Part shown: in pieces, positions 1 through 19,956 of the stretch
How the letters are laid out: every line of letters starts with the position of its first letter
Position numbering within the stretch: position 1 is the stretch's first letter
Source of the DNA: an uncultured Myxococcales bacterium
GTDB lineage: Bacteria; Myxococcota_A; Polyangia; Fen-1088
NCBI GenBank assembly: GCA_964589215.1
Contig: CAZPUH010000492.1
Location: 10,221 to 74,220, forward strand
DNA: 64,000 bases
Reading direction: 5' to 3'
Notes under the pieces: model-generated
Seen by the model: only the letters and a program-made list of their open reading frames with translations
What the model was told of the DNA's origin: nothing
Database searches by the model: none
Position numbers and translations under genes: made by a program

Positions 1-1049
1 AACCCGTGAGTGTTGCCGTCGATCGGATCGGGGTCGCAGGTGAAGACCGTGGGCGCCTCGTTGTTCCGGAAGAACACGCCCTGGCCGAAGTAGCCGAGCA
101 CCAGCGACTTGTAGTGCACGTAGTTCGGCAGCGACTGGTTGAGGCGCTGGAACTCGTTGTCGCCGAAGACCTGCATCTCGCTCTGCGGGTCGAGGTGCCA
201 GTGATACAGGCCGTCCTCGTGGGTCGGCACGTTGGTCGCGCGCAGCTGCGCGATCACGGTTCGGATGTCGCGCACCGAGAAGGTGTCGGTGGAGTCGATC
301 GAGTCGATGCCGTTGCCGCCGCCCGAGTAGACGATCTGGCTGCACTTGGCCGTCTGCACGACCGCGCGCGCGGCGACGTTGGAGGGCAGGGCCGGCGTGA
401 AGGTGATCACCCCGCCGTGGATCGGGTCACCCGCCACGTCGGGGGAGACCGCCGTGATCAATCCCGTGTAGCCGATCGACGGAATGCTGAACGGAATCGG
501 GTTCGAGGCCGAAACCGGCTGCTGGGAGCCGCCGAACAGGTTCGTGGTGAAGCCCGTGATGTTCACGAGGTGCAGGGTGGTGGCCGTGCTCGACCCGCCG
601 GTGTCCGTCACGGTGTTGCCGGCCACATAGGCGTTGTAGCCCTTGTCCCGGATCACGCGGTTCAGCGACTGGCCGGCCTGCAGGCCCAGCTGGTGGATGT
701 TCCGCATGAACTGCGAGGCGATCTGCAGGTAGCTCGTCGGCATGTTCGTGCTGATCGAGTCGTTCCACTTCTGAGCCGTGGCGCTCCACTGCTCGACGCC
801 CCAGGTCTTGCCCACCGGGTCGACGTTCGCCTGGGCGGGGCGCGTGCGCGGCTTCATGAGGCCGGGCCGCGAGAAGGTCGCCGTGCCGCCCAGGTGGATG
901 CCCCAGAGCTCGCGCATCGCCTCCATCCGGAACAGCAGGTTCGGGTAGAGCGCGTCGCGATACACGCGCTGGAGCGTGTTCTGCTGGATCGTCGCCGCGA
1001 TCGACGGGTTGAAAATTACTTGGAGCGAGCCGTCGGGGAAGTTCGCCAT
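1..1049 (-). CDS. major capsid protein (putative; C-terminus beyond window edge)
   Basis: Own minus-strand translation from ATG 1049: MANFPDGSLQVIFNPSIAATIQQNTLQRVYRDALYPNLLFRMEAMRELWG..., open to position 1 with high GC3. GAGGA lies 8 nt upstream. It directly follows the scaffold-like gene. It is absent from the ORF track because there is no stop in the window. The + ORF 6..1295 is its antisense shadow. Function is from position only. Confidence 0.55.
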   Translation of the reverse strand, partial: MANFPDGSLQVIFNPSIAATIQQNTLQRVYRDALYPNLLFRMEAMRELWGIHLGGTATFSRPGLMKPRTRPAQANVDPVGKTWGVEQWSATAQKWNDSISTNMPTSYLQIASQFMRNIHQLGLQAGQSLNRVIRDKGYNAYVAGNTVTDTGGSSTATTLHLVNITGFTTNLFGGSQQPVSASNPIPFSIPSIGYTGLITAVSPDVAGDPIHGGVITFTPALPSNVAARAVVQTAKCSQIVYSGGGNGIDSIDSTDTFSVRDIRTVIAQLRATNVPTHEDGLYHWHLDPQSEMQVFGDNEFQRLNQSLPNYVHYKSLVLGYFGQGVFFRNNEAPTVFTCDPDPIDGNTHG

Positions 1050-1107
1050 TGTGTCGTGTCCTCGTCGTTCAGCGTCTGGTGGGGCCCAGAATTCCTGGGT
1101 CCATTCG

Positions 1108-1137
1108 ACTGTCGGGCAGGTGACAGTCGCCCGTCAA
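1108..1137 (-). promoter_or_regulatory. class II promoter-like element TTGACG-N18-GACAGT
   Basis: CCCCTCTTGACGG (gene orientation) upstream of the capsid gene. The same TTGACG context recurs at 2625, 4205, 7638 and 51888. The transcript would be leadered, with a GAGGA SD. Confidence 0.35.
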
Positions 1138-1174
1138 GAGGGGCAGCCGGCGCTGAACGACGGGACACGAGCTG

Positions 1175-2026
1175 CTACGGCAGGCCGTTGGCCCGCTTGT
1201 ACTTCGCCCACTCCTCGTCGGAGAGTTCCATCGCGTTGAAGGGCTTCGGCTTGTCTCCGGGCTGCTTCACGGGCGGGGTGGTCTCGCCGGGCTGACGCGA
1301 GGCGGGCGGCGCGGTGGTGGGGCTGATCGGAACGACGGCCGGTGGCTGCTGGCCGATCATGGGGTGCTGGGCGCGGATGTAGGCAAAGACGGCCGCTCCG
1401 TCGACCTCCGGCTCACGCTGAAACGCCGCCTTCACCTCTGGCGCCACACCATCGGGGTTCGCGCTGAACGCCGCGAAGAGATTGCCGTACTCCGCCATCG
1501 CGAAGTCGACGTAGCGGTCGAGGACGCCGGCGGTCTTGGCCTCCATCCGCATCTCCATGCGGGTGGACTCGCGGACCTGGCGGCGCTTCAACTTCGTGAT
1601 CCGGCGGTTCTGCTTCGCGATCCGCGCGTCCCGCTCGGCGATTGCGGCATCTCGTGCGGCGATCTCGTCCAGCAGCTTCTTCTCCTTGCTGCCTGGCGCC
1701 TGGGGCTGGGTCGGCTGACCGGGGGCGGGCGCCGCGCCGGCGGCTGCCTTCTCGGCCAGGAGCTTCTTCACCTGCTCGAGGGTGACGTCCGCCCCGAGTT
1801 CCTTCCGGAGGATGCGTGACGCCTCCTGGCGGATCCGCTTCATCTCGGCGGGCCCGAAGGGCTTCGGCGTCGCCGCCTGCTGCTGGGCTGGCCTTCGCGC
1901 GGCCGGCGGCGTCGCCGGCGCCCCGGCGGGCGGCGCTCCCGCTGCGGGCGTTCCGCCCGTGCCGGGGTCCGTGTTGCCGCCCTCGCCCCCTGCCGGCGCG
2001 CCCGCGCCTGGATCTGCATCGCCCAT
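1175..2026 (-). CDS. scaffolding protein (putative)
   Basis: 283 aa. A/P/G-rich N-terminus, then a charged helical core (AARDAAIAERDARIAKQNRRITKLKRRQ). GGAG lies 8 nt upstream of ATG 2026. It sits immediately upstream of the capsid gene. Confidence 0.5.
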   Translation of the reverse strand: MGDADPGAGAPAGGEGGNTDPGTGGTPAAGAPPAGAPATPPAARRPAQQQAATPKPFGPAEMKRIRQEASRILRKELGADVTLEQVKKLLAEKAAAGAAPAPGQPTQPQAPGSKEKKLLDEIAARDAAIAERDARIAKQNRRITKLKRRQVRESTRMEMRMEAKTAGVLDRYVDFAMAEYGNLFAAFSANPDGVAPEVKAAFQREPEVDGAAVFAYIRAQHPMIGQQPPAVVPISPTTAPPASRQPGETTPPVKQPGDKPKPFNAMELSDEEWAKYKRANGLP

Positions 2027-2145
2027 GATCGATCTCCGTACCCGCCGCGTCTCAGCCCGGTGGTGCTGCCGCTCGCTCCGGATGTCGATTCGCGCGCCGG
2101 CCCCGGTGCGAGCGGGTCAGCCGGCCGGCGCGCGTCGAAGACCGC

Positions 2146-2565
2146 CTACGGCGCGCTGCGGATGCCGGGCGAGCGCTGAAGGACACCTGCCGTCGTGTCG
2201 GTGTCCTTCAGGTACAGGAAGCTCGCCGCCGTCACGGCGTCGGCGCTGTTGAACAGCACCTTCACGCCGCCGTCCCAGACACACACGCCCGCGGGCGGGA
2301 TGATGGCCTGGGCGCCGGTGATCGGCCCGATGATGACCTCCTTCTCGTGCACGGTGCCGGTTTCGGCCGTCGCCAGCGCGCGCAGCAGACCGAGCGAGCT
2401 CGGCTGGTTGGCCAACGTCGCCACGTTGGACGACGGAACCACGCCGGTCTCGGTGAAGGCCAGCCCCTTGATCAACGCGTTCAGGAGGCCCCCGAAGGGC
2501 ATCTCCCGCAGCAGGTCGAAAGTGCTGTTCGGGGGAACGGTGTCCAACTGGGTGCGGATGCTCAT
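2146..2565 (-). CDS. hypothetical head-module protein
   Basis: 139 aa, MSIRTQLDTVPPNSTF...; GGAG SD; high GC3. Confidence 0.6.
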   Translation of the reverse strand: MSIRTQLDTVPPNSTFDLLREMPFGGLLNALIKGLAFTETGVVPSSNVATLANQPSSLGLLRALATAETGTVHEKEVIIGPITGAQAIIPPAGVCVWDGGVKVLFNSADAVTAASFLYLKDTDTTAGVLQRSPGIRSAP

Positions 2566-2600
2566 CGCGATCTCCTGATCGGGTGGTGGTGCCCGAAACG

Positions 2601-2630
2601 ATTCAACGCGCCCGCGACCCCACCCGTCAA
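2601..2630 (-). promoter_or_regulatory. class II promoter-like element TTGACG-N18-TTGAAT
   Basis: GCCCTCTTGACGG context between 2644..3048 and 2146..2565. Leadered, with an SD downstream. Confidence 0.35.
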
Positions 2631-2643
2631 GAGGGCGGAGCGA

Positions 2644-3048
2644 TCAGGACACGTCGCCGAAGACCGCGTAGGCGATGTCGCACGCCTGGCTGCCCGTCGA
2701 GATCGACATCGACAGCACCTCGTCGCCGGGGTTGCGCACGCGCAGCAAGAACTGATCGGAGACCGGGATCGTGGCGGTGCCGAGCGCGGTCACGATGTTC
2801 AGCTTGAACGTGGCGCCAGCCAGCAACTTGAAGGCGATCACGCGCGCCTTGGTCACCGTGCCGAACGGCACCGCGTAGGGTGACACGTCGCTCGACACGA
2901 GGTTGGACAGCGTCCCGTCCTGCTGGCCCGTGTAGGTGTCGCAGAAGGCGATCGGCAGGACTTCGGTCAGCCCGCAGGAATAGAGCCCGGACGCGGCGGG
3001 ACCGCCGACCAGGACCCCCTGGAGCTGAACGCCGATCGCCTGAGACAC
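2644..3048 (-). CDS. hypothetical protein, paralog of 52119..52508
   Basis: 134 aa. The C-terminal IPVSDQFLLRVRNPGDEVLSMSI aligns with IPVSDLLLIRAQNAGDQLTAIKI of 52119..52508. Confidence 0.65.
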   Translation of the reverse strand: MSQAIGVQLQGVLVGGPAASGLYSCGLTEVLPIAFCDTYTGQQDGTLSNLVSSDVSPYAVPFGTVTKARVIAFKLLAGATFKLNIVTALGTATIPVSDQFLLRVRNPGDEVLSMSISTGSQACDIAYAVFGDVS

Positions 3049-3055
3049 CGCGGTG

Positions 3056-3226
3056 TCAGCCGGCGCCGGTGCCGCCGTCGTTCAGGTTCTTGAACGGCGT
3101 GGGTGTCTCGCGCACGGGATTCTGACCGGTTCCCCAGGCGTCCTCGTCGGACAGCTTCGGGGGAGCCGACCCCTTGGCGATCTCTTCGTCGTGCTTCGCG
3201 TTCGGGTTCTCGCCGTCGGTCGCCAT
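3056..3226 (-). CDS. small PxPFK-motif protein a
   Basis: Own translation, 56 aa: MATDGENPNAKHDEEIAKGSAPPKLSDEDAWGTGQNPVRETPTPFKNLNDGGTGAG. GGAGA SD. Below the track size cutoff. Confidence 0.5.
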   Translation of the reverse strand: MATDGENPNAKHDEEIAKGSAPPKLSDEDAWGTGQNPVRETPTPFKNLNDGGTGAG

Positions 3227-3235
3227 CTTGGTCTC

Positions 3236-3394
3236 CTACTCGCCGCTGCCGGTGTTCGTGATCTTGAAGGGCACCGGCTCCGCCTGATGCTCCTTGTCCG
3301 ACTTGATGTCCGCGAGCCGCGGATCCTCGCCGCGCGCGCGCTGCTGGTCATACGCCGCGTTCGGGTCTTGCCCCTTGCCGCCGTCGGTGTCCAC
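3236..3394 (-). CDS. small PxPFK-motif protein b
   Basis: Own translation, 52 aa, GTG start: VDTDGGKGQDPNAAYDQQRARGEDPRLADIKSDKEHQAEPVPFKITNTGSGE. GGGAGG SD. Confidence 0.5.
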   Translation of the reverse strand: MDTDGGKGQDPNAAYDQQRARGEDPRLADIKSDKEHQAEPVPFKITNTGSGE

Positions 3395-3395
3395 G

Positions 3396-3584
3396 TCAGC
3401 CTCCCTGGCTGCCGACCTTGAAGGGGGCAGGCCCCTCGCTGGTCGAGTTGGTGGGGTTCGCGCGGTAGTCCTGCTCCCGCGGCTGCTGGCACTGCGGCGG
3501 CAGTCCCTCGGGGACGCTGCGCGCCTCCCGGAACTTTCCGGCCTCGGTGCCGATGCTGATGGCCTGCTCTCGTGGACTGGGCAT
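3396..3584 (-). CDS. small PxPFK-motif protein c
   Basis: 62 aa, MPSPREQAISIGTEAGKF...EGPAPFKVGSQGG. AGGAGG SD. This is the 3' part of track ORF 3396..3734. Confidence 0.55.
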   Translation of the reverse strand: MPSPREQAISIGTEAGKFREARSVPEGLPPQCQQPREQDYRANPTNSTSEGPAPFKVGSQGG

Positions 3585-3597
3585 GCTGCGCCTCCTG

Positions 3598-3780
3598 TCA
3601 GGGCGTGGGCGTGATTCGAAAGGGCTCGTCGTCGCGGACGGGGTTCTCCTCCGAGCCGTCTTCCAACCCGCCCGAGTTCCGCCGCTGCTCCTCGAGCAGC
3701 CGCGAATTGCGCCCGAGGCCGGGGCTCGTCTCATCGAGCCAGGGCATCGGGTTTTCTCCGGGCGCGTTGTTGATCGGCAC
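3598..3780 (-). CDS. small PF[KR]-motif protein d
   Basis: 60-aa track ORF ending ...NPVRDDEPFRITPTP. GTG start, 6 nt after the upstream stop. Confidence 0.45.
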   Translation of the reverse strand: MPINNAPGENPMPWLDETSPGLGRNSRLLEEQRRNSGGLEDGSEENPVRDDEPFRITPTP

Positions 3781-3786
3781 GACGGT

Positions 3787-4173
3787 TCAGTCCTCGTCCT
3801 CTTCGTCGTCCTCTTCCTCGTCGTCCTCGTCCTCTTCCTCGGCCGCCTCTTCGTGATCTTCCTCGTGCTCGTCGAGAAGATCTTCGATCTCGTCGGCCGA
3901 CTTCTCGAGGCTGTCCTGGAGCTTCTCGAACTTCTTCGTGAAGCTCTTGTCCTCGTCGTCGGGCAGCGTCACGCCCTTGAGCCCCTCGATCGCATCCGCG
4001 GTCTTCTTCAGCGCCGCGCAGGACGCGCACCCGCCATCGCCACCCCCGCCCTCGTCCCCGTCGGGCTCCTCGTGTCCGCCGGTGCCGCCGCTGGTCTGGC
4101 TGCCGCCGTGCGCCTCGTCATCGGCGCCGCCGTCCTTGGTTGCGTTCCGCACGTCGTTGAGCGAGTAGCCCAT
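3787..4173 (-). CDS. extremely acidic protein with poly-D/E tail
   Basis: 128 aa from ATG 4173 (MGYSLNDVRNATKDGG...), ending EEEDEDDEEEDDEEDED. Alternative ATG at 4185. Confidence 0.6.
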   Translation of the reverse strand: MGYSLNDVRNATKDGGADDEAHGGSQTSGGTGGHEEPDGDEGGGGDGGCASCAALKKTADAIEGLKGVTLPDDEDKSFTKKFEKLQDSLEKSADEIEDLLDEHEEDHEEAAEEEDEDDEEEDDEEDED

Positions 4174-4180
4174 GCGCGCC

Positions 4181-4210
4181 AGCATGCGGCCCCGCCAGAG
4201 CACGCGTCAA
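4181..4210 (-). promoter_or_regulatory. class II promoter-like element TTGACG-N18-CATGCT, 7 nt before ATG 4173
   Basis: GCCCCCTTGACGC context. The spacing implies a leaderless start at 4173. Confidence 0.35.
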
Positions 4211-4378
4211 GGGGGCGAACTCCGCGCCGGTAATCCGCCGGCGCTCGGACCCCTGCACGGAACGCCACGCCAGGGTGGGCGGGGGATGTGTCCGGCGCTG
4301 ATCAGCCGAGCAGGAACCAGCGCCCCGCCTGCGGCTGGGTGACCGTGCATCCCAGGTCCGCCGACGGATGTCGTTTAC

Positions 4379-4389
4379 GATTCTACGCG
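4379..4389 (-). promoter_or_regulatory. class I motif variant (CGCGTAGAATC)
   Basis: One mismatch to the 11-mer. Its TAG is the stop codon of 4383..4607. No start codon lies within 10 nt downstream. Confidence 0.35.
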
Positions 4390-4607
4390 CCAGGAGATGC
4401 CGGCGACCACCACTCGACATCGTCTCTCGTCGCAACGAACCTGCAGCCGCGCGGCATCAGCGCCCGCGCGCCATCTGGTCCGGTGGTGAGCATTCGCGCG
4501 CGGCTCGGTCTCAGCGCGACATCGAAGCCCACGGTGCGCCACCCCCATGATCTGGTTTCCCAAAACCCATCTCGGCGGCGCCGGATGGTCCAGAACGACG
4601 GCGTCAT
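4383..4607 (-). CDS. hypothetical Trp/Arg-rich small protein
   Basis: 74 aa, MTPSFWTIRRRRDGFWETRSWGW... ATGA overlap with the upstream stop at 4604. GC3 is high. Confidence 0.45.
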   Translation of the reverse strand: MTPSFWTIRRRRDGFWETRSWGWRTVGFDVALRPSRARMLTTGPDGARALMPRGCRFVATRDDVEWWSPASPGA

Positions 4608-5239
4608 GCCGGCGCTGGATTGATCAGCGCCAGAATGGCGCCCGCGGCCTGAGCCCGTGTCGCGATCGCCGATGGCGACTGGTCGCCGCCGTTCGCCGCC
4701 CGGGCCAAGTCGACGCAATAGCGCACCAGGTCGACCATCGCGATCTCAATCAGATGCTGCGTTCCGCCCGCCGTGTAGGCGCGCGCGGAGAGCTCGCGCA
4801 GGAAGCGCGCGCGCGGACCCAGCGGACTGCCATTCCGCGCCTCTGCGCCGGGCCGAGCGAAATCCTCGACCTTCCAGGCGACCTGGATGCCGTACCGGGC
4901 ATAGATCACGGTCTTGATGGCCTCCAGCTTCCGTCCGTCGTACACCGCCGACGTGGACGCCATGGTGCTCTGCGACCCCTCCGGGCGCTTCACCTCCACC
5001 AGCTTGGTTTCGGCGTTGAACGACCAGACGATGTCGCGCGGCTCTGTCATCCAGCCCGCGTCGTAGGACAGCAGGCAAACGAAGGCCCGCAGATCAGGAT
5101 CGGCCTTCCAATCTTTCTCCGGCTCGGCGGGCGCCGCTGGGGTGGCACCCGGCTCGATCAGCGCGGCGGCGCGGCCCGTCGGCGCGGGCTCGTCGGTCAG
5201 CGGGGGTCGAAACTTGCCGCGTTTCTTCGGCACGGTCAC
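4604..5239 (-). CDS. hypothetical protein
   Basis: 211 aa from GTG 5239, with a GTGA overlap on the upstream stop at 5236. The 5' part of the track ORF overlaps the previous gene. Confidence 0.55.
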   Translation of the reverse strand: MTVPKKRGKFRPPLTDEPAPTGRAAALIEPGATPAAPAEPEKDWKADPDLRAFVCLLSYDAGWMTEPRDIVWSFNAETKLVEVKRPEGSQSTMASTSAVYDGRKLEAIKTVIYARYGIQVAWKVEDFARPGAEARNGSPLGPRARFLRELSARAYTAGGTQHLIEIAMVDLVRYCVDLARAANGGDQSPSAIATRAQAAGAILALINPAPA

Positions 5240-5577
5240 GAGGTGCCTCGAAAGCCTGCCCGGATGATTCGATTGATCGATTCGCCCGCTGCGTAGCCCA
5301 TCGCGCGCATGTGGGCTTTCGCCGCCTCGTTCGCATCGCGCGTCTTCGCTACCAGGTTGTTCACGACGAGAGGATCGGCACCATCGAGAATCGCCTGGGC
5401 CCGGAACGCCTCGAGCTCCGGCACGAAGTCCGCCGGCAACGGTCCCGGACCGATCCACGTCAGGGACGCGTGCCAGCGGTCGAGTCCTTTCAGATCTCGC
5501 CAGGCAACACAGGCCGCGGTGATGTCGTCGAAGACGCGCTCCTCCTGCGCGTAGCCGTAAATCAGCTTCCAGGCCAT
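5236..5577 (-). CDS. hypothetical protein
   Basis: 113 aa, MAWKLIYGYAQEE... The class I motif ends 7 nt upstream of the ATG. Confidence 0.65.
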   Translation of the reverse strand: MAWKLIYGYAQEERVFDDITAACVAWRDLKGLDRWHASLTWIGPGPLPADFVPELEAFRAQAILDGADPLVVNNLVAKTRDANEAAKAHMRAMGYAAGESINRIIRAGFRGTS

Positions 5578-5583
5578 GTCCGA

Positions 5584-5594
5584 GATACTACGCG
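5584..5594 (-). promoter_or_regulatory. class I promoter-like motif CGCGTAGTATC
   Basis: Exact 11-mer. TAGTAT ends 7 nt before ATG 5577. Its TAG is the stop codon of 5588..6529. Confidence 0.6.
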
Positions 5595-6529
5595 CCCAGC
5601 CCGGCCGTGGTCGGCTTGACCTCGCCGCCGCTCGCCACGGTCGCCGGCGCCCCCCATTCCGGCAGCCAGCTGACCATCACCTCGCGGTCGTGCGGACGGT
5701 TTGGCGGGTGCATGTACTCGACCGTTCGCACCACCTCGCCGGCGGCGTTCTTCACCTGCCAGATGAACGGCGCCAGGACGTCGACGGTCTGCCCGTCCAG
5801 ATCCTTCGAGTCGTCCCCCTCGCGCACGTCTCTGGTGGCGACCAGCCGTTTCATCAGCCGCGGCGTGGCGCGCCGTTTGAAATCGACCATCCCTCGCTGG
5901 GCGGCCGCGTTGGTGGCGTAGCTCATTTCGGTTCTGACGATGCGCTCCGCCCGCCAGCGCTGCCCCTCGAACAGGCCGTGCAGTGGGTTGGGATCGAGCA
6001 GGCGATCCACGGCCTCGTCCACGGTCTCGGCCTGCACCATCGACTGCGCGAGCCCGTTCCGGATCGCGTTCAGCGCCTGGGGCCCGTAGAGCTTGGAGCT
6101 GCGCCTGAAGCGATCGAGCAGGGTGGGCGCGATCTCCGGATAGACGCCGCGCACCACCGCCAGCTGGGTCGCCTGGATCACCGGCGTCATGCGGCCCATC
6201 GCACCCTCGACCTTGCCGATCATGTGCGCGACCTGGCGGGCGCCGGTGTTGGCGGCGAGCTCGCCCGTCTGTTCGATGTGCCGCCGGAGCGGTTCCTCCA
6301 TGTCCTTGATCGCGCTCGTCACCTGGGCCAGCACCGCCCGCAAATGCACCACGCTGAAGTTGTCGGCGCCCGCGGTCACCTGCAACAGGCGCAGGCGCTT
6401 GGCCAGCTCCTCGCGCGCCTGAACATAGATCGGCTTGAGCCGGCCCACCGCCCGGACGTCGGTCAGCCCAGCCAGTTGGGCGCGCTGCAAGTCAACAACC
6501 TGGCGGATGAGCGGGAGCGGAGACGGCAC
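5588..6529 (-). CDS. head morphogenesis protein, SPP1 gp7 / Mu F family
   Basis: 313 aa with the family-typical QRWRAERIVRTEMSYATNAA segment. Lies downstream of the portal. GTG start with AGGA upstream. Confidence 0.8.
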   Translation of the reverse strand: MPSPLPLIRQVVDLQRAQLAGLTDVRAVGRLKPIYVQAREELAKRLRLLQVTAGADNFSVVHLRAVLAQVTSAIKDMEEPLRRHIEQTGELAANTGARQVAHMIGKVEGAMGRMTPVIQATQLAVVRGVYPEIAPTLLDRFRRSSKLYGPQALNAIRNGLAQSMVQAETVDEAVDRLLDPNPLHGLFEGQRWRAERIVRTEMSYATNAAAQRGMVDFKRRATPRLMKRLVATRDVREGDDSKDLDGQTVDVLAPFIWQVKNAAGEVVRTVEYMHPPNRPHDREVMVSWLPEWGAPATVASGGEVKPTTAGLGA

Positions 6530-6538
6530 GCGCCGATC

Positions 6539-6685
6539 CTACATCGGAAGAAGTGCCAGCAGCCGCCGGCCCCTTTCCGTGACTTGGGCTCCGGAGATGC
6601 ACGGGCCTCCTGGAGGGGACGGAGCGCGGCGTCCCGCGCTCACGATGGCCTTTCGGCTCCACCCAATCCGGCTGGCTGCTGGCAC
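6539..6685 (-). CDS. possible 48-aa leaderless ORF, or the 5' UTR of the Mu-F-like gene
   Basis: GTG 6685 lies 7 nt after the TAGTAT of motif 6692..6702. The ORF is open to TAG 6539. Its composition is not convincing. Confidence 0.25.
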   Translation of the reverse strand: MPAASRIGWSRKAIVSAGRRAPSPPGGPCISGAQVTERGRRLLALLPM

Positions 6686-6691
6686 GCCGGA

Positions 6692-6702
6692 GATACTACG
6701 CG
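6692..6702 (-). promoter_or_regulatory. class I promoter-like motif CGCGTAGTATC
   Basis: Exact 11-mer, 7 nt before GTG 6685 and about 160 nt upstream of the Mu-F-like gene. Confidence 0.55.
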
Positions 6703-6712
6703 GCGGCGTTCG

Positions 6713-7606
6713 TTACTGCGCGCGCGGCGTGAATACCGCCCACTTATCCAGGTGGATCTCCTGGTTCGTGCTGCCCGCCGTGATCTCGGCGACCATGCGA
6801 GCCGACGCCGGCCCGTTGTTGAAGTTCGTCAGCGTCGTCATGGTCGGGCCAACCAGCGCACCGTCATAGATCAGCTGCAGCGCCGTGCCGTTGAAGTACA
6901 CGCCGACGTCGTGATACGCGCTGTCGAACGAGACCCCGGTGTCAACGACCGTCGTCGATCCTGCTGCCGCCTCGAGCAGGATGTGCGTCGTGGAGCGCAC
7001 GCCATCGATCATTGCGCCGACGTTCGCCGTCCCGCCCGTGAGCGCGGCGAGCTGGAAGAAGGTGTTGGCGTCCGGGGTAGTGGCGACCTTGACCCGGCTG
7101 ACGATTGCCCAGTGGGTCGTGGTGTCGTTCGCGACGAGAGCGTTCCCGTTGCTGTTGTTCAGGATGGCGACCGCAACGGAGGTAGCGCCGGTCTTGATCT
7201 GCAGCACCCCCCCCGTCTCGGAGGTCAGTACGTTGACCGCGCCCGTCGAGACGATCGTTCCAACCGTTGACGCCAGGGTCTTGGTCGCCAGCTCGTCCTG
7301 AAATGGAATCGAGTCGATAACGGAGTCGGTTCTGTTCAGGAAGGCCAGATACCGGCCGAACCAATCCGCGTATCTCGGCGTCTGCTGCCATTGATTGTTC
7401 CCGGCGCCGTACTTCTCCCACGCCTGCGTGCCAGCTCCATTGAGCACAACGAAGCCAAGCGGCGCAGCCAGACCGCCATCGGCGGTGCTCGGATCGAAAC
7501 TGACGTACTTTTCCGGCGGCGTGACGATGCCGACGCGTGCGTTGTTGCCGCTGCAGGCCGCGATCAGGGCCAGCGAGGCGAGAGTGGCCAGCAGGAGCTT
7601 TTTCAT
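6713..7606 (-). CDS. lipoprotein, beta-rich
   Basis: MKKLLLATLASLALIAAC lipobox. 297 aa from ATG 7606 (track start is 7618). Confidence 0.7.
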   Translation of the reverse strand: MKKLLLATLASLALIAACSGNNARVGIVTPPEKYVSFDPSTADGGLAAPLGFVVLNGAGTQAWEKYGAGNNQWQQTPRYADWFGRYLAFLNRTDSVIDSIPFQDELATKTLASTVGTIVSTGAVNVLTSETGGVLQIKTGATSVAVAILNNSNGNALVANDTTTHWAIVSRVKVATTPDANTFFQLAALTGGTANVGAMIDGVRSTTHILLEAAAGSTTVVDTGVSFDSAYHDVGVYFNGTALQLIYDGALVGPTMTTLTNFNNGPASARMVAEITAGSTNQEIHLDKWAVFTPRAQ

Positions 7607-7613
7607 ACGCAGA

Positions 7614-7643
7614 AGCATCCGCCTGAGCTGGCCCTGCCGTCAA
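7614..7643 (-). promoter_or_regulatory. class II promoter-like element TTGACG-N18-GATGCT, 7 nt before ATG 7606
   Basis: The spacing supports a leaderless MKKLLL start. Confidence 0.4.
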
Positions 7644-7649
7644 CCGGGC

Positions 7650-8114
7650 CTACGCGGCGCCGCGCATCGGTGACGGTTTCTTTCCGTCTTCGATCTGGTT
7701 CTCTCGCGCGTGCACGCCGCCCTTGCCCGTATGGCACTCCTCGCAGAGAACGTGGAGCGCGTCCACCTCGTTCACGTGCCCCAGTTCGACGCCCTTTTTC
7801 AGGTCGCCTCGCTTCCGGGCCTCTGGATCCTCTGCGATTTCCTTGGGATGGCCCGAGATGTGGTCGAGGGTGATGTCCTTCTTTGGGGTCGGGCAGTGGC
7901 TGTTGGTGCAGCGCCACTTGTCGCGGCGGAACACCTCGAGCGCGATCGCCGGGTCAACGCCCCCCTTTCCGTCCTGCGCCAGCGTGGCGCCGTGCTTCTT
8001 CGCCTCGCGTTGGATCTGCCGGACGATACGAGCGTTGCGGCGCGCCTTCAGCGCCTTGCGTCGGTCGCGCTCGCCCTTCTTCACGACTGAGGCGACAGCC
8101 TCGCGCGTCGCCAC
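7650..8114 (-). CDS. HNH endonuclease
   Basis: CTNSHCPTP...LTLDHISGHP...HVLCEECH metal-binding pattern. AGGAGG SD. Confidence 0.75.
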   Translation of the reverse strand: MATREAVASVVKKGERDRRKALKARRNARIVRQIQREAKKHGATLAQDGKGGVDPAIALEVFRRDKWRCTNSHCPTPKKDITLDHISGHPKEIAEDPEARKRGDLKKGVELGHVNEVDALHVLCEECHTGKGGVHARENQIEDGKKPSPMRGAA

Positions 8115-8117
8115 CGG

Positions 8118-8672
8118 CTATTCCTCCTTGGTCAGCGGCACGCTTCGCAGAGCAGGGGCGCCGCCGCGCCAGTGCGCGGCCTGGACCGGATCATGCGGGC
8201 TGACGCCCACCTGGGCGGCCGCCTCGGCGTCCGGCACCAGCGCATTGAAGAACTCCGGCGGCACGCGGTTGTCCTCCGGCATGATGTCGGCCAATCCGTC
8301 GAGCATGGTCTGGTAGGGATCGGCCAGGCTGCCATTCGCGTCCAGCCCCGGCCGCAGGAGCTGGGAGGAGCCGCGGCGGAGCGGCGCCAGCGCGTGTCCT
8401 GGCGGCAGGATGCCGGCCGGCACACCGGACGGAGCCGCGGGCAATCCGTGTGCGGGCCGGCCGCTGGCATCAACCAGCCGCGACGAGGGGGCCGGCGGTG
8501 CCGCGACCTGCACCATCCGGAACCCGTGAACGGAGTCCGGCACCCAGGCGTAGCCGTCAGGTGGCGCCGGGAGGCCCTGCTGCGGCTGTCGCGCTGGCTG
8601 CGTCGGCGCTGGGGACTGGCGCTGCGGCGGCCCCGACTTGAACATCCGCTGCAGGTCGGCTCGGCTCGGCAT
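8118..8672 (-). CDS. hypothetical Pro-rich protein
   Basis: 184 aa from ATG 8672 (MPSRADLQRMF...). The start is uncertain because it overlaps 8557..9129 by 116 nt. Confidence 0.45.
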   Translation of the reverse strand: MPSRADLQRMFKSGPPQRQSPAPTQPARQPQQGLPAPPDGYAWVPDSVHGFRMVQVAAPPAPSSRLVDASGRPAHGLPAAPSGVPAGILPPGHALAPLRRGSSQLLRPGLDANGSLADPYQTMLDGLADIMPEDNRVPPEFFNALVPDAEAAAQVGVSPHDPVQAAHWRGGAPALRSVPLTKEE

Positions 8673-9129
8673 GCACCGAGGATACACCCGGGCTTGGGTA
8701 GGCGGGAGCCAGGTGGATACCGAGTTCCGCTGCTAACCGCGTGAAATTAGGCTGCTCACTTTCATCGTCAATTATTGCGTCGACCAGTGGTTTGCCGGGC
8801 AGCGTCCAGGGCGTCATCAGGCTCCAGACCCCCTCCGCCTCAAGGAACGCGCGCATCTCCTCGAACAGCCGCCAGGCGAGCTCGGCGGCCTCCGGCGCGC
8901 GGCCGGTCTCCCAGAAATCCTCCGCCTCCCAGCCGCCCGGTCCTTCGGCGTTGGCCAGATGGCAGGCTGGCGCGCAGCGGCACGAGAACAGCCAAATCCG
9001 AACGCCGGCCGCTGCGCAGCCCAGCACGAACTCCTTGGCGCGCGGCCGCCAGCGCATGGGCGCGCCGCGCTCGACCATGGTGGCGTCGAAATCCAGCGCG
9101 ACGACGCGCGCGCCGTCAGCAGCCGGCAC
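8557..9129 (-). CDS. HAD-superfamily phosphatase-like protein
   Basis: VVALDFDATMV (DxDxT motif) and GKPLVDAIIDDES (C-terminal HAD motifs). The low-complexity tail may be over-extended. Confidence 0.55.
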   Translation of the reverse strand: MPAADGARVVALDFDATMVERGAPMRWRPRAKEFVLGCAAAGVRIWLFSCRCAPACHLANAEGPGGWEAEDFWETGRAPEAAELAWRLFEEMRAFLEAEGVWSLMTPWTLPGKPLVDAIIDDESEQPNFTRLAAELGIHLAPAYPSPGVSSVHAEPSRPAADVQVGAAAAPVPSADAASATAAAGPPGAT

Positions 9130-9222: not shown

Positions 9223-10944
9223 TCACGGCCGCCCGCCGACCGCGGCCGCCCGCTCCAACTCGCTTTCGTAGGTCCCCAGCTGGTCGGCTGCGGCCTGCTT
9301 CGCCTCGGCCTCCGCCTTCGCCACCTCACCCTCGACGTCCTGCACGCCGTAGAACGGCGCCACCCGGCGTGCCGCCGTCGCCCGGGTGATGAACAGCGCC
9401 GCCTGGGCCTTCGCCGCGTTCTGGATCACCTGGCCCTTGTCGGCCTCGGTCGGCGGGAACCATGGGCCCCACAGGATGCTGACGTAGCCCCCCTCGCCCA
9501 GCGTGTACGGCTCCAGAGATTCATCGCCGGTGTCGGGGTCCTTCTTGCGCCGGAGCGGCAGATCGAACTGGACCACACCGATCCGTGGGTTGCCGTCCTC
9601 GTCCGGCGGCAGCTGACGTGGCGGCTGGCTCAGGAACTTTTGCGCCATGAAGACCACGATCTCCATCAGCGCCTCGATCGCCTCGCCGTACTGCTCGCGC
9701 AGGTCACCGGCCTTGGCCAGCATCGGCGCAAACCGGAGCTCGAGCGCCTCCGCGCTCTGCGCGGCCGCCATTGTTTCGTCGTTCGGAATCACCACCCCCG
9801 TAATCGTGTCCGTGTTCGCCTGCAGCTTGGTCGACAGCTCCAGCCCGGTGGTGACGCCGGCGCCTGACATCTCCATGTACTTGGCGCTCCCCTGCAGGCC
9901 GGTCTCGATGCCGTAGCGGGAACCTTTCTGCAAACCCTGTTGCTGCGCGACCTGGTTCACCGCGTGCGGATCGGTCGACGTCACGACGGTGGGGTCCATG
10001 TTTCCGAGCGTCGAATAAGCCGCCTGCGACAGGATGCGGTCGTCGGTGTCGATCGACTGGTAGGCGCCGTCGCAATCCGACTGCCCGTCCTCGGTCCCCT
10101 CCTCTTCGACAGCAGTGTTCAGGATCCATACGCCAGGGAAGCGGCCGAGATTGTGTTGAACCGCCAGCCCTTCTTCCGGAACCCACGACGCTGCTGGGTT
10201 CGCGATCGCGTCGTCGAACGCGACCTCCTTGTAAATGATGTCGCTCTTCTCGGTGATGATCCGCCGACACAGGTAATCGACCATCTCCGTCCCGATGATC
10301 TCGCCCTTGTCGTTGACCTTGTTCCGCTCGCGCACCGTCCGATACATGATCAGCAGGCCCGCCAACGAGCGATCCCGCGGGTCCTTCCAGACGGGCGTGC
10401 AGAACTTCGAGTTGTGCACCTCAAACGACCAGCGCCCCTCCCGCAGGTGAACGGTCATCGCCACCGATCCGATGCCGCCACCCAGGTTCCGTGCCGCACG
10501 CATCTTCGACCAGAACTTCGCCTTCTTGCGCACCGCCTCGAGGAAGGACGTCGTGTCCTCGTCGCCGTCGACCACGATCTGCGGCTTGCTCCGTTCGTTG
10601 AAGAGCAGGTTGGTGAACCGCTCGGTGGTCACCTTCGCCCGCCGCGTCGGCGCCGTCGGCCGCTTGTCCCTGACGTCGAGTTCTGGCCCGCCGCCGGTGG
10701 GAACCGTGCCACTCGGGTAGACGGCTTCGGCGGAGATCGTCTCCTTCGCCCGGGCCGGCATGTCGAACCAGTCGGTCTCTTGGTGGTCGTACTCCCGGCA
10801 GGTCAGAAACGCGTGCTTCCGATCGAGCGCTTTGAATCGCTCGGTCTCGTGGAAGACCGCCGTCCTCTGCAGGTGCTGGATGACCTGGTCGTCGGTGGGC
10901 TTGAAGGGTGCCGGCGCCGGCCGGCCATCAACGGTGGTGCTCAC
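9223..10944 (-). CDS. portal protein (putative)
   Basis: 573 aa, upstream of the Mu-F-like, scaffold and capsid genes. GTG start lies 7 nt after a TAGGCT hexamer. The N-terminus carries RPAPAPFK. Confidence 0.6.
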   Translation of the reverse strand: MSTTVDGRPAPAPFKPTDDQVIQHLQRTAVFHETERFKALDRKHAFLTCREYDHQETDWFDMPARAKETISAEAVYPSGTVPTGGGPELDVRDKRPTAPTRRAKVTTERFTNLLFNERSKPQIVVDGDEDTTSFLEAVRKKAKFWSKMRAARNLGGGIGSVAMTVHLREGRWSFEVHNSKFCTPVWKDPRDRSLAGLLIMYRTVRERNKVNDKGEIIGTEMVDYLCRRIITEKSDIIYKEVAFDDAIANPAASWVPEEGLAVQHNLGRFPGVWILNTAVEEEGTEDGQSDCDGAYQSIDTDDRILSQAAYSTLGNMDPTVVTSTDPHAVNQVAQQQGLQKGSRYGIETGLQGSAKYMEMSGAGVTTGLELSTKLQANTDTITGVVIPNDETMAAAQSAEALELRFAPMLAKAGDLREQYGEAIEALMEIVVFMAQKFLSQPPRQLPPDEDGNPRIGVVQFDLPLRRKKDPDTGDESLEPYTLGEGGYVSILWGPWFPPTEADKGQVIQNAAKAQAALFITRATAARRVAPFYGVQDVEGEVAKAEAEAKQAAADQLGTYESELERAAAVGGRP

Positions 10945-13862: not shown

Positions 13863-14906
13863 CTACGAAGCGAGGAACGTCTGGGCGGCCGCCGCCAGCG
13901 TCCGGTCGCTGACGTCGCCGAACCACGCGTTGCTGAGGCGCGTGTCGTTGTCGTTGCCGCGCTGCCAGGTCAGATACTCCGTCGCCGCGTTGTAGGCGGC
14001 CCAGGCCGTGCCGCGAACGCCGGGGGCATCGTTGCCGCGACCGGACTCGAACAGCTGGGAGACCGTCTCGAACACGCGCGATTCGCGCTCCTTGGTCGTC
14101 GTGAGCGTCGAGCCGGCCGAGACGAAGTCACGCGACATGAGCGCGTCGAAGCTGTCGCCCTCGACGGCCGACTGAGCGGCCGCGATCGCCGCGTCGCGCT
14201 TCGCCTTGACGCGCCGGAACACGCGGTCGACGAAGGTCCGGAGCGAAGCCTCGGTGACGTTGACACTGGCCAGTGCGCGGAACACCTCGGCCGCTTTCTC
14301 GAAGTCGTGGTCAACGCGATCGATCGTCTCTTGCACGAGCTTCAGTGCGTCGCCGCTCTTCGCGGTGTGCCGGATCTTGATCGTCGCGGTGCGACGGTCG
14401 GCGATCGACGCGCTCAGCGTGTTCTGGCAGACGACGCGAATCGGAGTCAGACCGACGTGCAGGGCAAGCGAGCCGTCGTGACCGTTCGCGACCAGCAGGT
14501 ACTTGGCGACGCGGTCACCAGCCTTCGGAACGATGACGGAGTCCTCGCGAGCGATCTTCGCGAGCATCCAGACGCGCGCGCCCTTGCGAAGAGAACCGGC
14601 CGTCTCGATGCTCACGGCGCGTTGCTCGACGAACGGCGCGAAGAACTGAAACGCGTCGGCGTTCTGGACCGGACGGTAACCGCAACCGACCGTGCCGAGC
14701 ACGCGGTTATCCGAGCTCCGGATCGTCGCGTAGCGGTCGACCGCGGTGCCGTCCGCCAGCTGCAGCTGTTCGAGCCGGACCGACCAGTCGAGACCGGCGA
14801 GCTTGAGCGCCTCGGCGATCGACTCCGGCGCGGTCTGCAAAGCAGTGCCGAGACCGTGCCAGGGGGTCTCGCCGACAAACATCATGTTCTCGATCTCGTG
14901 TGCCAT
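13863..14906 (-). CDS. DUF932 / phage-plasmid TIGR03299-like protein
   Basis: The N-terminus MAHEIENMMFVGETPWHGLG is characteristic of the family. 347 aa. GAGGAG SD. Confidence 0.75.
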   Translation of the reverse strand: MAHEIENMMFVGETPWHGLGTALQTAPESIAEALKLAGLDWSVRLEQLQLADGTAVDRYATIRSSDNRVLGTVGCGYRPVQNADAFQFFAPFVEQRAVSIETAGSLRKGARVWMLAKIAREDSVIVPKAGDRVAKYLLVANGHDGSLALHVGLTPIRVVCQNTLSASIADRRTATIKIRHTAKSGDALKLVQETIDRVDHDFEKAAEVFRALASVNVTEASLRTFVDRVFRRVKAKRDAAIAAAQSAVEGDSFDALMSRDFVSAGSTLTTTKERESRVFETVSQLFESGRGNDAPGVRGTAWAAYNAATEYLTWQRGNDNDTRLSNAWFGDVSDRTLAAAAQTFLAS

Positions 14907-18456: not shown

Positions 18457-19956
18457 CTACCCCGTCGTGAACGCGGGCGGCATCGGTGCCAAGGAATCGG
18501 CCAGCGCAATCGGCGGCACCACCGCGCCCGCCACGCCCGCGGGGACCGCCAGCGGCGAGACCGGCAGCAGCAATGGCGGGACCCGCGCCTCCACGACGCC
18601 CCACGCCACGTTGCGCCACCACGCGGCAACGTAGGCATCCTTTCTGAGCCCGTAGTCGGGCATCCAGGCGTGCTCGGCAGCGTCCAGGGCGACGATTACA
18701 GGCGCGTTCGCCGGCGCCCCGCTGTCATCCCCCTCGAGGACCATGTTCCGCAGCCTGCCGCCCCGGCCATCGCGAACCGCGAGCACCCAGCTGGCGGCCG
18801 CGCGCGCCGCCTGGCGGAAGTCCGCCGCCCAGGCGTCGACCGACCCGAAGGCTTCGACCGCCGCGGCCGTGAACGCCGGGCCAGGTCCGGCGGCGCCCGC
18901 GCCGCGCGCCAGCCCCTCGAAGTAGAGTTCGTGCAGGACGACCGCGTTGTGGACGGCCGGCAGGCGCCGGCGGGCGGCATCCGCGGGGCTGGGCCCCGCC
19001 TCCCGGCCCAGGAATTCGCCCACGGTGAAGTCCAGCGCAGTGAACGGCACTCGGCGGCCCACCCGTTTGATCGGCGCGGGTCCGTAGGCCATCCCCTGGC
19101 CCACCAGCATGTCCTCAACCGCCAGGAGCTTGGCCAGCGCGGCGGGCCGGTCGGCGTAGGTCTCCCGCCACCGCGAGCCGGGGTCCAGCCAGCAGGCGAA
19201 CGTCTCCGCCCAGTCCTCGTCGGGGTGCTTCTGGCCGTAGTGCGCCAACGGCGCGCTGGCGTTCTGCGCGATGTAGGACACGTAGGCATCGCTGGCGGCC
19301 GGGTCGGGCGTGAAGTCGTCCTGGTAGGGCGCCGCGAAGTTCCCGAAGGTCTCCCCCCACTTGATCCGCTGGTACAGCAGGTAGGCGTAGCCCAGGGCGT
19401 GTCCGAGCTCGTGACGCAGGATGCGCAGGACGTCGTCGACCGAGTACCGCAGGAAGTTGTCGTTCACCAGCGCCCAAAGGGCGTCGCTCGCCAGGTACCA
19501 GGGCAGGTTGATCGAGACCGCCTGATCGGCCGTCCAGAAGTCGGAGTCGCCCACGTACCAGGACGGCCGCCAGGTGATGCCGCGATCCTGCAGCTCCCCC
19601 TCCACCTGGGCGATGGCTTCGGCCAGCTTTCCGGTCGGCTCGAGCAACGGCAGGTCCCGCACCGGGGTGACCAGCAGCTGGTGGGCTTCCGCCGCTGGCA
19701 GCCCGCCGGTTGACCGCGCGCTGGCGCCAGCCACCGCGTCGAGCTCGGCCATCTCAACGACGTAGCGCCGATAGAGCTCCAGATGGTCGGCTAGCACCCG
19801 GTCGGAGATCCCGACCAGACCGCCCGTCAGGAGCGCCGTGAAATCACGCGGCGCGGCCGGTGCCGGCGCCTGCTTTTCCTCGGCGGCCCAGCGGCGCGCC
19901 ATCGCGGGGTGTGTCGCCCACATCCATCTTCGTTGCTTGGCGCTCTGCCATGGCAT
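18457..19956 (-). CDS. zinc metallopeptidase-like (HELGH) domain fused to a Fe/Mn-SOD-like domain
   Basis: RHELGHALGY. C-terminal FGSVDAWAADF...ASWVLAV...LDAAEHAWMPDYGLRKDAYVAAWWRNVAWGVV parallels the SOD pattern FGS.D..F..GSGW.WL..D.WEHAYY..R..Y...W.vvNW. Confidence 0.6.
   Translation of the reverse strand: MPWQSAKQRRWMWATHPAMARRWAAEEKQAPAPAAPRDFTALLTGGLVGISDRVLADHLELYRRYVVEMAELDAVAGASARSTGGLPAAEAHQLLVTPVRDLPLLEPTGKLAEAIAQVEGELQDRGITWRPSWYVGDSDFWTADQAVSINLPWYLASDALWALVNDNFLRYSVDDVLRILRHELGHALGYAYLLYQRIKWGETFGNFAAPYQDDFTPDPAASDAYVSYIAQNASAPLAHYGQKHPDEDWAETFACWLDPGSRWRETYADRPAALAKLLAVEDMLVGQGMAYGPAPIKRVGRRVPFTALDFTVGEFLGREAGPSPADAARRRLPAVHNAVVLHELYFEGLARGAGAAGPGPAFTAAAVEAFGSVDAWAADFRQAARAAASWVLAVRDGRGGRLRNMVLEGDDSGAPANAPVIVALDAAEHAWMPDYGLRKDAYVAAWWRNVAWGVVEARVPPLLLPVSPLAVPAGVAGAVVPPIALADSLAPMPPAFTTG

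Follow-up and report, generated by a model that had tools for sequence, protein, structure and literature searches.

Why would a tailed phage keep four tiny, apparently unstructured proteins side by side among the genes for its head? The question is raised by a 64,000-nucleotide stretch of DNA (hereafter the window) from an uncultured Myxococcales assembly (contig CAZPUH010000492.1, positions 10,221 to 74,220). The window is phage DNA with about 67% guanine plus cytosine (GC), coded almost throughout on the minus strand. Four consecutive open reading frames (ORFs) of 52-62 amino acids (aa), which we call t1 to t4, lie there between a gene for an acidic protein and the scaffold and capsid genes. 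The initial annotation proposed that they share a C-terminal PxPF[KR] motif, found again at the N-terminus of the portal protein, that might act as a docking or targeting peptide. We confirmed that t1-t4 are genuine genes, conserved in the head module. Our tentative reading, to which we give a probability of about 0.4, is that t1-t4, together with the acidic protein, make up a conserved accessory cassette within the operon for head assembly, and that t1-t4 would be minor procapsid components that dock via linear motifs. The four genes and their motifs are as follows.

3598..3780, minus strand: t1, 60 aa, GTG start, with the core PGLGR..QR..SGGL.D...NPVRDDEPFR
3616..3645, minus strand: C-terminal module of t1, NPVRDDEPFR
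3396..3584, minus strand: t2, 62 aa, ATG start, with a conserved MPSPRE N-terminus and a RE.DYRANPTN...PAPFK C-terminus
3417..3431, minus strand: motif of t2, PAPFK
3236..3394, minus strand: t3, 52 aa, GTG start, a paralog of t4, with a DPN(A/E) N-terminal motif and a PVPFKIT C-terminal motif
3263..3277, minus strand: motif of t3, PVPFK
3056..3226, minus strand: t4, 56 aa, ATG start, with a (D/N)PN..HD N-terminal motif, then AWG..NPVRETPTPFKNL..GG
3083..3121, minus strand: C-terminal module of t4, NPVRETPTPFKNL

The array is tightly packed, as first described. The spacers are 6 nucleotides (nt) from the acidic protein's gene to t1, then 13 (t1-t2), 1 (t2-t3), and 9 (t3-t4), and 7 nt from t4 to the next gene, p134. 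Each ORF has its own Shine-Dalgarno sequence: AGGAGG 6 nt before t2, GGGAGG 5 nt before t3, AGGAG 6 nt before t4, and a weaker one for t1 (GAGGA, 10 nt before the start). (One gene caller picked a 49-aa form of t1 from an alternative ATG at 3747.) The GC content of t1-t4 at third codon positions (GC3, 0.87-0.92) and second codon positions (GC2, 0.43-0.59) equals that of the capsid, MuF, and portal genes, while overlapping alternative ORFs (112 aa, 136 aa, and plus-strand shadows) have atypical codon-position GC. The four genes were also called in independent assemblies of the phage (an 87,962-bp contig; runs of the SRR121705xx series, of which SRR12170510-18 contain the phage).

We rejected several other accounts of these ORFs. 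They are not spurious, and they are not one gene split by frameshifts, as in every lineage the ORFs are separate and each has a Shine-Dalgarno site of its own. They are not ribosomally synthesized and modified peptides or signalling peptides, as they have no signal peptide and there is no modifying enzyme nearby. Finally, they are not Pup-like tags, as the C-terminal GG is not conserved.

The array is conserved across a large clade of phages. Related contigs were recruited by their capsid protein from IMG/VR and JGI metagenomes (52-96% identity), and we separately retrieved the surroundings of distant homologs of t1 and t4. In 15 of 15 lineages, which span 52-71% GC, the array is in the same position: MuF and the acidic protein precede it, and p134, another conserved gene (p139), the scaffold, and the capsid follow. 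Thirteen lineages have all four genes and two (L040 and L049) lack t3; in another (L051), an extra 101-aa ORF is inserted in the array. In three lineages (L039, L045, and L050), the acidic protein is encoded inside the array, in the order t1-t2-acidic-t3-t4, and it always adjoins the tiny genes. That it shifts its place within the array argues for a single functional unit, and we count it as part of the same cassette. In contrast, two true morons of this module in the window, a 301-aa lipoprotein-like ORF and p113, have no counterpart in any related locus. The clade is a large one of uncultured phages with MuF and an SPP1-type portal, and the cassette is a stable part of its head operon.

The genes at each position of the array form a separate ortholog family, whose conserved linear motifs go further than PxPF[KR]. 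The t1 family has PGLGR..QR..SGGLSDD..(N)PV[RK][DN]..[PS][FIY][RK]; t2 has MPSPRE...RE.DYRANP.NP...P.P.K(NLKG); t3 has DPNE...NL.EA.NK...PFKIT; and t4 has DP.[DE].YD..HG...[AE][WYF]G..LNPVRETP....[NG]L[KR].[VG]G. When the families are compared with each other, t3 and t4 are clear paralogs (hhalign probability 95.8%, E = 7e-9). The pairs t1/t3, t1/t4, and t2/t4 align solely over the C-terminal module (E = 0.005-0.04), and t1 and t2 do not align. The N-terminal motifs are family-specific, with DPN.. common only to the paralogs t3 and t4. Residual DNA repeats between neighbors (t4-t3 in the N-terminal region and t3-t2 in the PFK codons) fit tandem duplication.

Large searches found these families only as tiny proteins. 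Among 5.8 billion proteins, the t1 profile matched 79 clusters (at 90% identity), all of 49-90 aa, and the t4 profile matched 133 clusters, all of 35-62 aa. An exhaustive HMMER search over 1.84 billion representatives gave 62 proteins, all of 50-87 aa. Neither set of searches returned a homolog with a Pfam domain, a fusion partner, or any name beyond "hypothetical protein." Pfam-A and PHROGs v4 have no match to t1-t4 at E ≤ 1, which includes any homology to the phage T4 proteins gp67 and gp68 or the T4 internal proteins. In 50,697 records of cultured phages, we found neither p139 (by tblastn) nor a credible t4, and a DNA search with 12 kb found no near-identical match in these records. (A match of t4 to the virion RNA polymerase of Erwinia phage S6, E = 0.06, lacks NPVRETP and was dismissed as chance.) Scans of viral contigs for related loci with p134 alone or with the window's portal alone gave nothing. 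A capsid-profile scan of species-representative genomes found no relative, so no host is assigned. By these searches, t1-t4 belong to no described family: the families are new and uncharacterized, and the functions we propose are putative. The kind of function is likely already known, even though the sequence families are new.

We then asked how far the shared C-terminal motif extends. The C-termini given in the initial annotation, and the TDG..(D/N)PNA N-terminus shared by two of the proteins, are as stated. A strict P.PF[KR] is present in t2, t3, and t4 (and in the portal), but t1 has DEPFR instead, so not all four carry the full motif. P.PF[KR] occurs 4 times in the 14,155 aa of minus-strand coding sequence, versus 0.19 expected, and not one of 100,000 composition-preserving shuffles gave all four proteins a PF[KR] within their final 20 residues, which excludes chance. 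(Each has only 1-2 phenylalanines.) Because the proteins are related, this pattern reflects shared ancestry and retention, rather than convergence or four independent events.

Among the relatives, the exact motif loosens. We scored its retention within the last 22 residues in 16 array sequences sampled from the 15 lineages. PF[KR] is kept in 8/16 t1, 3/16 t2, 9/14 t3, and 2/16 t4 sequences, and the strict P.PF[KR] is kept in 0 t1, 1 t2, 5 t3, and 2 t4 sequences. This makes the window's phage unusual in having PF[KR] in all four proteins. In the 119 clusters of t4, the phenylalanine column holds F in 49, A in 31, and G in 27, so the exact PxPF[KR] is not the conserved core. By column counts, the near-invariant parts of t4 are LNPVRETP and [NG]L[KR]. 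In the 79 clusters of t1, they are GGL.D...P-V-[RK] followed by proline or serine (62 and 17), then F, I, Y, or L (56, 12, 4, and 3), and then R or K (36 and 26). The general module is roughly (N)PV[RK][DE]-x3-5-[P/S/A]-[F/A/G/I]-[K/R/T]-[N/G/I]-[L/T]-[K/R]-..G. (Its ..NLKGG part looks superficially like the GSL[KR]G type of encapsulin peptide.) Judged from these alignments, the strict PxPF[KR] is a lineage-specific local form of this broader module. The profile search of relatives, which the initial annotation had suggested as a check, recovered the families, with a looser motif. A C-terminal motif retained over a large and deeply diverged clade is what a docking motif would resemble, which partly supports that idea. 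A caution is that the neat pattern of one genome, PxPF[KR] in the array and in the portal, did not hold its shape once relatives were compared.

Is the motif also present outside of the tiny proteins? The window's portal starts with (V/M)STTVDGRPAPAPFKPTDD, where PAPFK is residues 11-15 (10900..10914, minus strand), so the motif is indeed at the N-terminus of this portal. As a meaningful shared motif it fares worse. Four portal orthologs, with 46-51% identity, start with ATTIKGAPAPTAFVPTD, VSTTIEGRPADTAVQPN, VSTTLKGTPAVRAAQPD, and MSTTPAGLPAARSFQPQ; none of the four has PF[KR], and the residues at the motif site are AFV, AVQ, AAQ, and SFQ. (The HNH endonuclease gene between portal and MuF, which is kept in the L002 and L006 relatives with 58-67% identity, served as an anchor to the portal orthologs.) Using position matrices for the t families, and shuffles as the control, we scored the portal, scaffold, acidic protein, MuF, p134, p139, and capsid. 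The window's portal scores significantly (p ≤ 0.04) with two of three matrices, but no portal ortholog has a significant score at the N-terminal site. The other nominal match in a portal, with the t4 matrix in L031 (p = 0.02), is at residue 96, away from that site. Since the portal copy is missing from the orthologs, it is either lineage-specific or coincidental.

There are weaker echoes in other proteins. PF[DGH] occurs in the N-terminal disordered region of the scaffold in 5 of 11 lineages, and the window's scaffold has two PKPF sites, but their matrix scores are not above those of the shuffles. A [DE]K[SA]F[TK]K site is conserved in several acidic proteins (p = 0.003 in two). The acidic protein of L046, a distant relative (5251-6429), is larger, at 392 aa, with three repeats (KKAPPFGKDK, KKAPPFGKDK, and GKAAPFSPGK) before the usual helical and poly-D/E part; the Pro-Phe-x-Lys peptide of these repeats recalls the motif of the tiny proteins. 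These sequence similarities are hints, not proof, that Phe-Lys peptides recur in the cassette. Among 887 ORFs of about 15 related loci, no larger protein carries the C-terminal module, and the sole C-terminal matches besides t1-t4 are two short minus-strand ORFs that we judged to be spurious. We also searched the literature, both for the motif strings and for recruitment by motifs in the heads of phages, and found nothing relevant. With no larger tagged protein and no conservation of the portal copy, the module is not a tag for cargo that the portal has in common with t1-t4.

The initial annotation compared the motif to the cargo-targeting peptides of encapsulins, and this analogy is apt in part. 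The cargo-loading peptides of Family 1 encapsulins are C-terminal peptides of about 10 residues, joined by a flexible linker rich in Pro, Gly, and Ala, and they are encoded beside the gene for an HK97-fold shell (PMC8229669). Similarly, the conserved C-terminal module of t1-t4 follows a Pro/Gly-rich stretch in all four families, near an HK97-fold neighbor. However, the consensus differs, and the defining peptides of encapsulins tag folded enzymes, while t1-t4 have no cargo domain and neither the 887 ORFs nor the homolog searches contain another tagged protein or a folded cargo. This is where the analogy fails. Two conserved ends joined by a variable linker fit small bivalent tethers, not cargo tags.

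The proteins were also described as disordered, and prediction supports this: all four are on the disordered side of the charge-hydropathy boundary. They have 75-78% disorder-promoting and 12-20% hydrophobic residues, a net charge of 0 to -6, and isoelectric points of 4.3-6.2. An AlphaFold2 model of t4, from an alignment of 119 sequences, has no globular fold (predicted TM score, or pTM, of 0.25; mean predicted local distance difference test, or pLDDT, of 72), with only two short helices (residues 10-18 and 27-31). Such predicted disorder, together with acidity, suggests a resemblance to scaffold or core proteins. (Several of the prohead core and internal proteins of phage T4 are acidic.)

The other genes of the head module are as follows.

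10944..9223, minus strand: SPP1-type portal protein (PF05133, E = 8e-10; phrog_64)
7650-8114, minus strand: HNH endonuclease gene, between portal and MuF
6713-7618, minus strand: 301-aa lipoprotein-like ORF, between portal and MuF, with the lipoprotein-type signal MKKLLLATLASLALIAAC
5588..6529, minus strand: MuF/SPP1 gp7-like head morphogenesis protein
3787..4203, minus strand: acidic protein, 138 aa, net charge -35, with a poly-D/E tail
2644..3048, minus strand: p134, beta-rich and conserved, directly after t4 in all cases, without a family or Protein Data Bank (PDB) match
2146..2565, minus strand: p139, a conserved folded protein whose fold is unassigned (AlphaFold2 pLDDT 91.8), duplicated in some relatives
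1175..2026, minus strand: scaffold-like p283, 283 aa, Pro/Ala-rich; its positional counterpart in L038/L039 and L050 matches PF06810 (Phage_scaffold)
1..1049, minus strand: major capsid protein, first 349 aa, whose gene exits at the edge of the window (phrog_1357, E = 5e-11)

The order of transcription is portal, several small genes (the HNH and lipoprotein-like ones among them), MuF, two unassigned ORFs, the acidic protein, t1-t4, p134, p139, scaffold, and capsid. The array is therefore between the acidic protein and the scaffold and capsid genes, as originally claimed, but with p134 and p139 also lying between it and the scaffold. Within 1000-7000, we found neither promoter-like sites nor minus-strand terminator-like sites. 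An Rfam scan of the region matched no RNA family, and in a repeat scan of the region, the sole repeats were the residual ones between the paralogous genes and a poly-acidic codon repeat. The latter is an imperfect codon repeat of 9-15 nt, in 7 copies, that encodes the poly-D/E tail of the acidic protein (3787-3886, minus strand), and it accounts for the tandem-repeat signal at the edge of the array.

Neither Pfam nor PHROGs matched the acidic protein, p134, p139, or the scaffold. PDB sequence searches with profiles of p134, p139, and the capsid gave nothing meaningful, and the capsid has no solved homolog. The AlphaFold2 model of p139 is confident (pTM 0.78), with N-terminal helices and a beta sandwich. 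Foldseek's best match to it in PDB is weak (E = 0.047, TM score 0.36), to a portal-tail chain of a cyanophage (a podovirus). The best viral-model match is an uncharacterized protein, and in PDB and BFVD together Foldseek gave only weak podovirus adaptor or tail matches of low TM score. No solved or predicted viral structure matched the model at TM > 0.45, and p139 may have an undescribed head-associated fold. Because these structural matches are weak, the neighbors do not decide between an internal and an external cassette. The p139 family comprises 185 clusters. It is duplicated in L003 (7970-8993) and L015 (1311-2347) and enlarged in L049 (3447-4241) and L051 (4027-4560); the longer copies, of 177-264 aa, have an Ala-rich insertion.

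Several other genes are worth recording. For the 301-aa lipoprotein-like ORF, tblastn found no counterpart in the related loci, which gives it the look of a moron specific to this lineage. The MuF homolog of L046 (3412-5211) is 599 aa long, with an insertion of about 290 aa that starts with C-LPGETVV and ends with ..YYHAN and looks like an intein. Elsewhere in the window, a 499-aa protein (18457-19956, minus strand) has the C-terminal domain of Fe/Mn superoxide dismutase (PF02777, E = 3.5e-15) and a weak, sub-cut-off match to a putative zinc metallopeptidase family (PF15887), which is an unusual gene for a phage to carry. A DUF932 protein (13863-14906, minus strand; PF06067, E = 1e-50) is encoded among the non-structural genes.

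How might the cassette work? In our preferred reading, t1-t4 would be made together with the scaffold and capsid proteins and would enter the procapsid during its assembly, as minor components of the core or as auxiliary scaffold. Docking would be via two short linear motifs, the family-specific one at the N-terminus and the shared module at the C-terminus. Afterwards, they might be expelled when DNA is packaged, as acidic scaffolds are, or they might be retained and ejected. This reading rests on the acidity of the proteins, their adjacency to MuF and the scaffold, their co-inheritance with the acidic protein, and the conservation of both ends.

Known phages offer precedents for several of these steps. 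In SPP1, gp7 (the MuF protein) is targeted to the interior of the procapsid through the portal (PMC6316719), and the SPP1 module has the same architecture as the window: an SPP1-type portal, MuF, small ORFs, scaffold, and capsid. In T4, internal proteins enter the scaffolding core via a conserved capsid targeting sequence, and a short peptide suffices for encapsidation (PMC3012670). Like gp67, gp68, and the internal proteins IPI-III of T4, t1-t4 are small and encoded in or near the head module; the T4 proteins are built into the scaffolding core, as t1-t4 would be. A difference is that in T4 the targeting sequence is at the N-terminus and the gp21 protease cuts it off, whereas the shared module of t1-t4 is C-terminal, and scans of the ORFs between portal and capsid revealed no protease. 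Also, t1-t4 are not the phage's scaffolding protein. Proteins of that kind (PF06810) are coiled-coil or helical and 150-300 aa long, and bind the capsid through a C-terminal region, while t1-t4 are 52-62 aa with almost no predicted helix, and p283 fills the role.

Several observations weigh against our reading. First, the presence of t1-t4 in the procapsid or virion, their docking to a partner there, and their role are what we infer from sequence. Second, the portal copy of the motif is not conserved, and the matrices found no significant match in the orthologs of the scaffold, MuF, p134, p139, or capsid. Third, outside of the motifs, t1-t4 evolve faster than the capsid. The ratio of nonsynonymous to synonymous substitution rates (dN/dS, by Nei-Gojobori) is weakly informative: it is 0.17-0.68 for the closest pair and near 1 for distant pairs, and beyond the closest pair it is uninformative because GC3 is near saturation. 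Fourth, in SPP1 the junction between MuF and the scaffold carries non-structural moron genes (PMC6316719).

We can also imagine a more elaborate version, which we consider rather unlikely. The four microproteins and the acidic protein would form a network of disordered, motif-anchored staples inside the HK97-fold procapsid. The common C-terminal module would dock at one site on the shell or core, and each N-terminal motif would hold a different partner (portal, MuF, scaffold, or p134/p139). This would be a cargo-less phage counterpart of encapsulin loading peptides, and it might help to set the size or organization of a capsid for a genome of about 88 kb.

Another explanation is that t1-t4 are not core components but extended peptides that cement or tether the capsid lattice. 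They might lie between capsomers or tie p134 and p139 to the shell, which would stabilize a large capsid. The nearest cultured phages, as judged by the capsid, are Streptomyces phage Kromp (32% identity) and Ralstonia phage Raharianne (29.5%). These share the capsid family and the order portal, (MuF), scaffold, and capsid, but both lack the acidic protein, t1-t4, p134, and p139. (Kromp's gene 6, at L036 5680-5868, encodes 62 aa between scaffold and capsid and reads like a Prp-type cysteine protease, MIHVR..DGHEG..VCAAVSA; the window has no equivalent.) In favor of this explanation, p134 and p139 are clade-specific additions like t1-t4 and always directly follow them, and the p139 family, with its 185 clusters, is comparable in size to the t families (79-133 clusters). 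Four proteins with a similar anchor and differing second motifs would also suit quasi-equivalent sites. However, we could not place the folds of p134 and p139 among those of decoration proteins, as the closest hit in PDB is the weak one to a podovirus portal-tail chain, and a position upstream of the scaffold and capsid, beside MuF, is where internal or assembly proteins are more usual. Overall, we think that a cement role is improbable.

Two further explanations seem to us decidedly unlikely. One is that t1-t4 are packaged and then ejected with the DNA as small effectors, which might act against host defenses or on host physiology, with the C-terminal module serving only as a packaging signal. 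The internal proteins of T4 and toxins fused to MuF are delivered from the head and have a conserved targeting element (PMC3012670, PMC6316719), and the t genes are near MuF. But effector families are usually variable or patchy, whereas here four orthologous families have N-terminal motifs that are conserved across the clade, and we see no arms-race type of diversification at the conserved motifs. The other is that they are late-expressed genes of the moron type, with a function unrelated to capsid assembly, that occupy a permissive junction between MuF and the scaffold. Moron ORFs 8-10 of SPP1 occupy exactly this junction (PMC6316719), and the head module in the window has evident insertions, namely the HNH and lipoprotein-like genes. 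Unlike the SPP1 morons, though, t1-t4 are not bracketed by transcription signals and are translationally packed. They also keep their order over 52-71% GC, and their place in the head module in all of the sampled lineages, while real morons vary between relatives.

The last explanation is very improbable: that a maturation protease recognizes or cleaves at the motif, or that the motif mimics a C-terminal docking peptide of the host, either the tail of SSB (..DDEPPF) or the end of FtsZ (..PxFL[KR]). It has in its favor only a resemblance (DDEPF in t1) and the portal copy near the N-terminus, where lambda-type portals are trimmed. But that copy is not conserved, Kromp's Prp-type protease gene is absent here, no protease was seen between portal and capsid (Pfam and PHROG scans matched only portal, MuF, and capsid, though the HNH ORF and those at 8118-8687 and 8557-9129 were not all run against both libraries), the phenylalanine of t1-t4 is never the C-terminal residue, as recognition of the SSB tail requires, and the order in the t motif is Phe-basic-hydrophobic, versus Phe-hydrophobic-basic in FtsZ.

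Phage annotation routinely skips small disordered proteins, yet t1-t4 are among the most stably positioned genes in the head module of a widespread clade of soil phages that has no cultured member. Whatever their role, they give PHROGs and Pfam new families to include. Should they have no structural part to play, then they are a conserved family of late-gene microproteins. If they are motif-anchored procapsid components, then the capsids of tailed phages can recruit several minor proteins via a common linear peptide, and the module of 8-12 residues would be a ready-made candidate tag with which to bring foreign peptides into HK97-fold shells.

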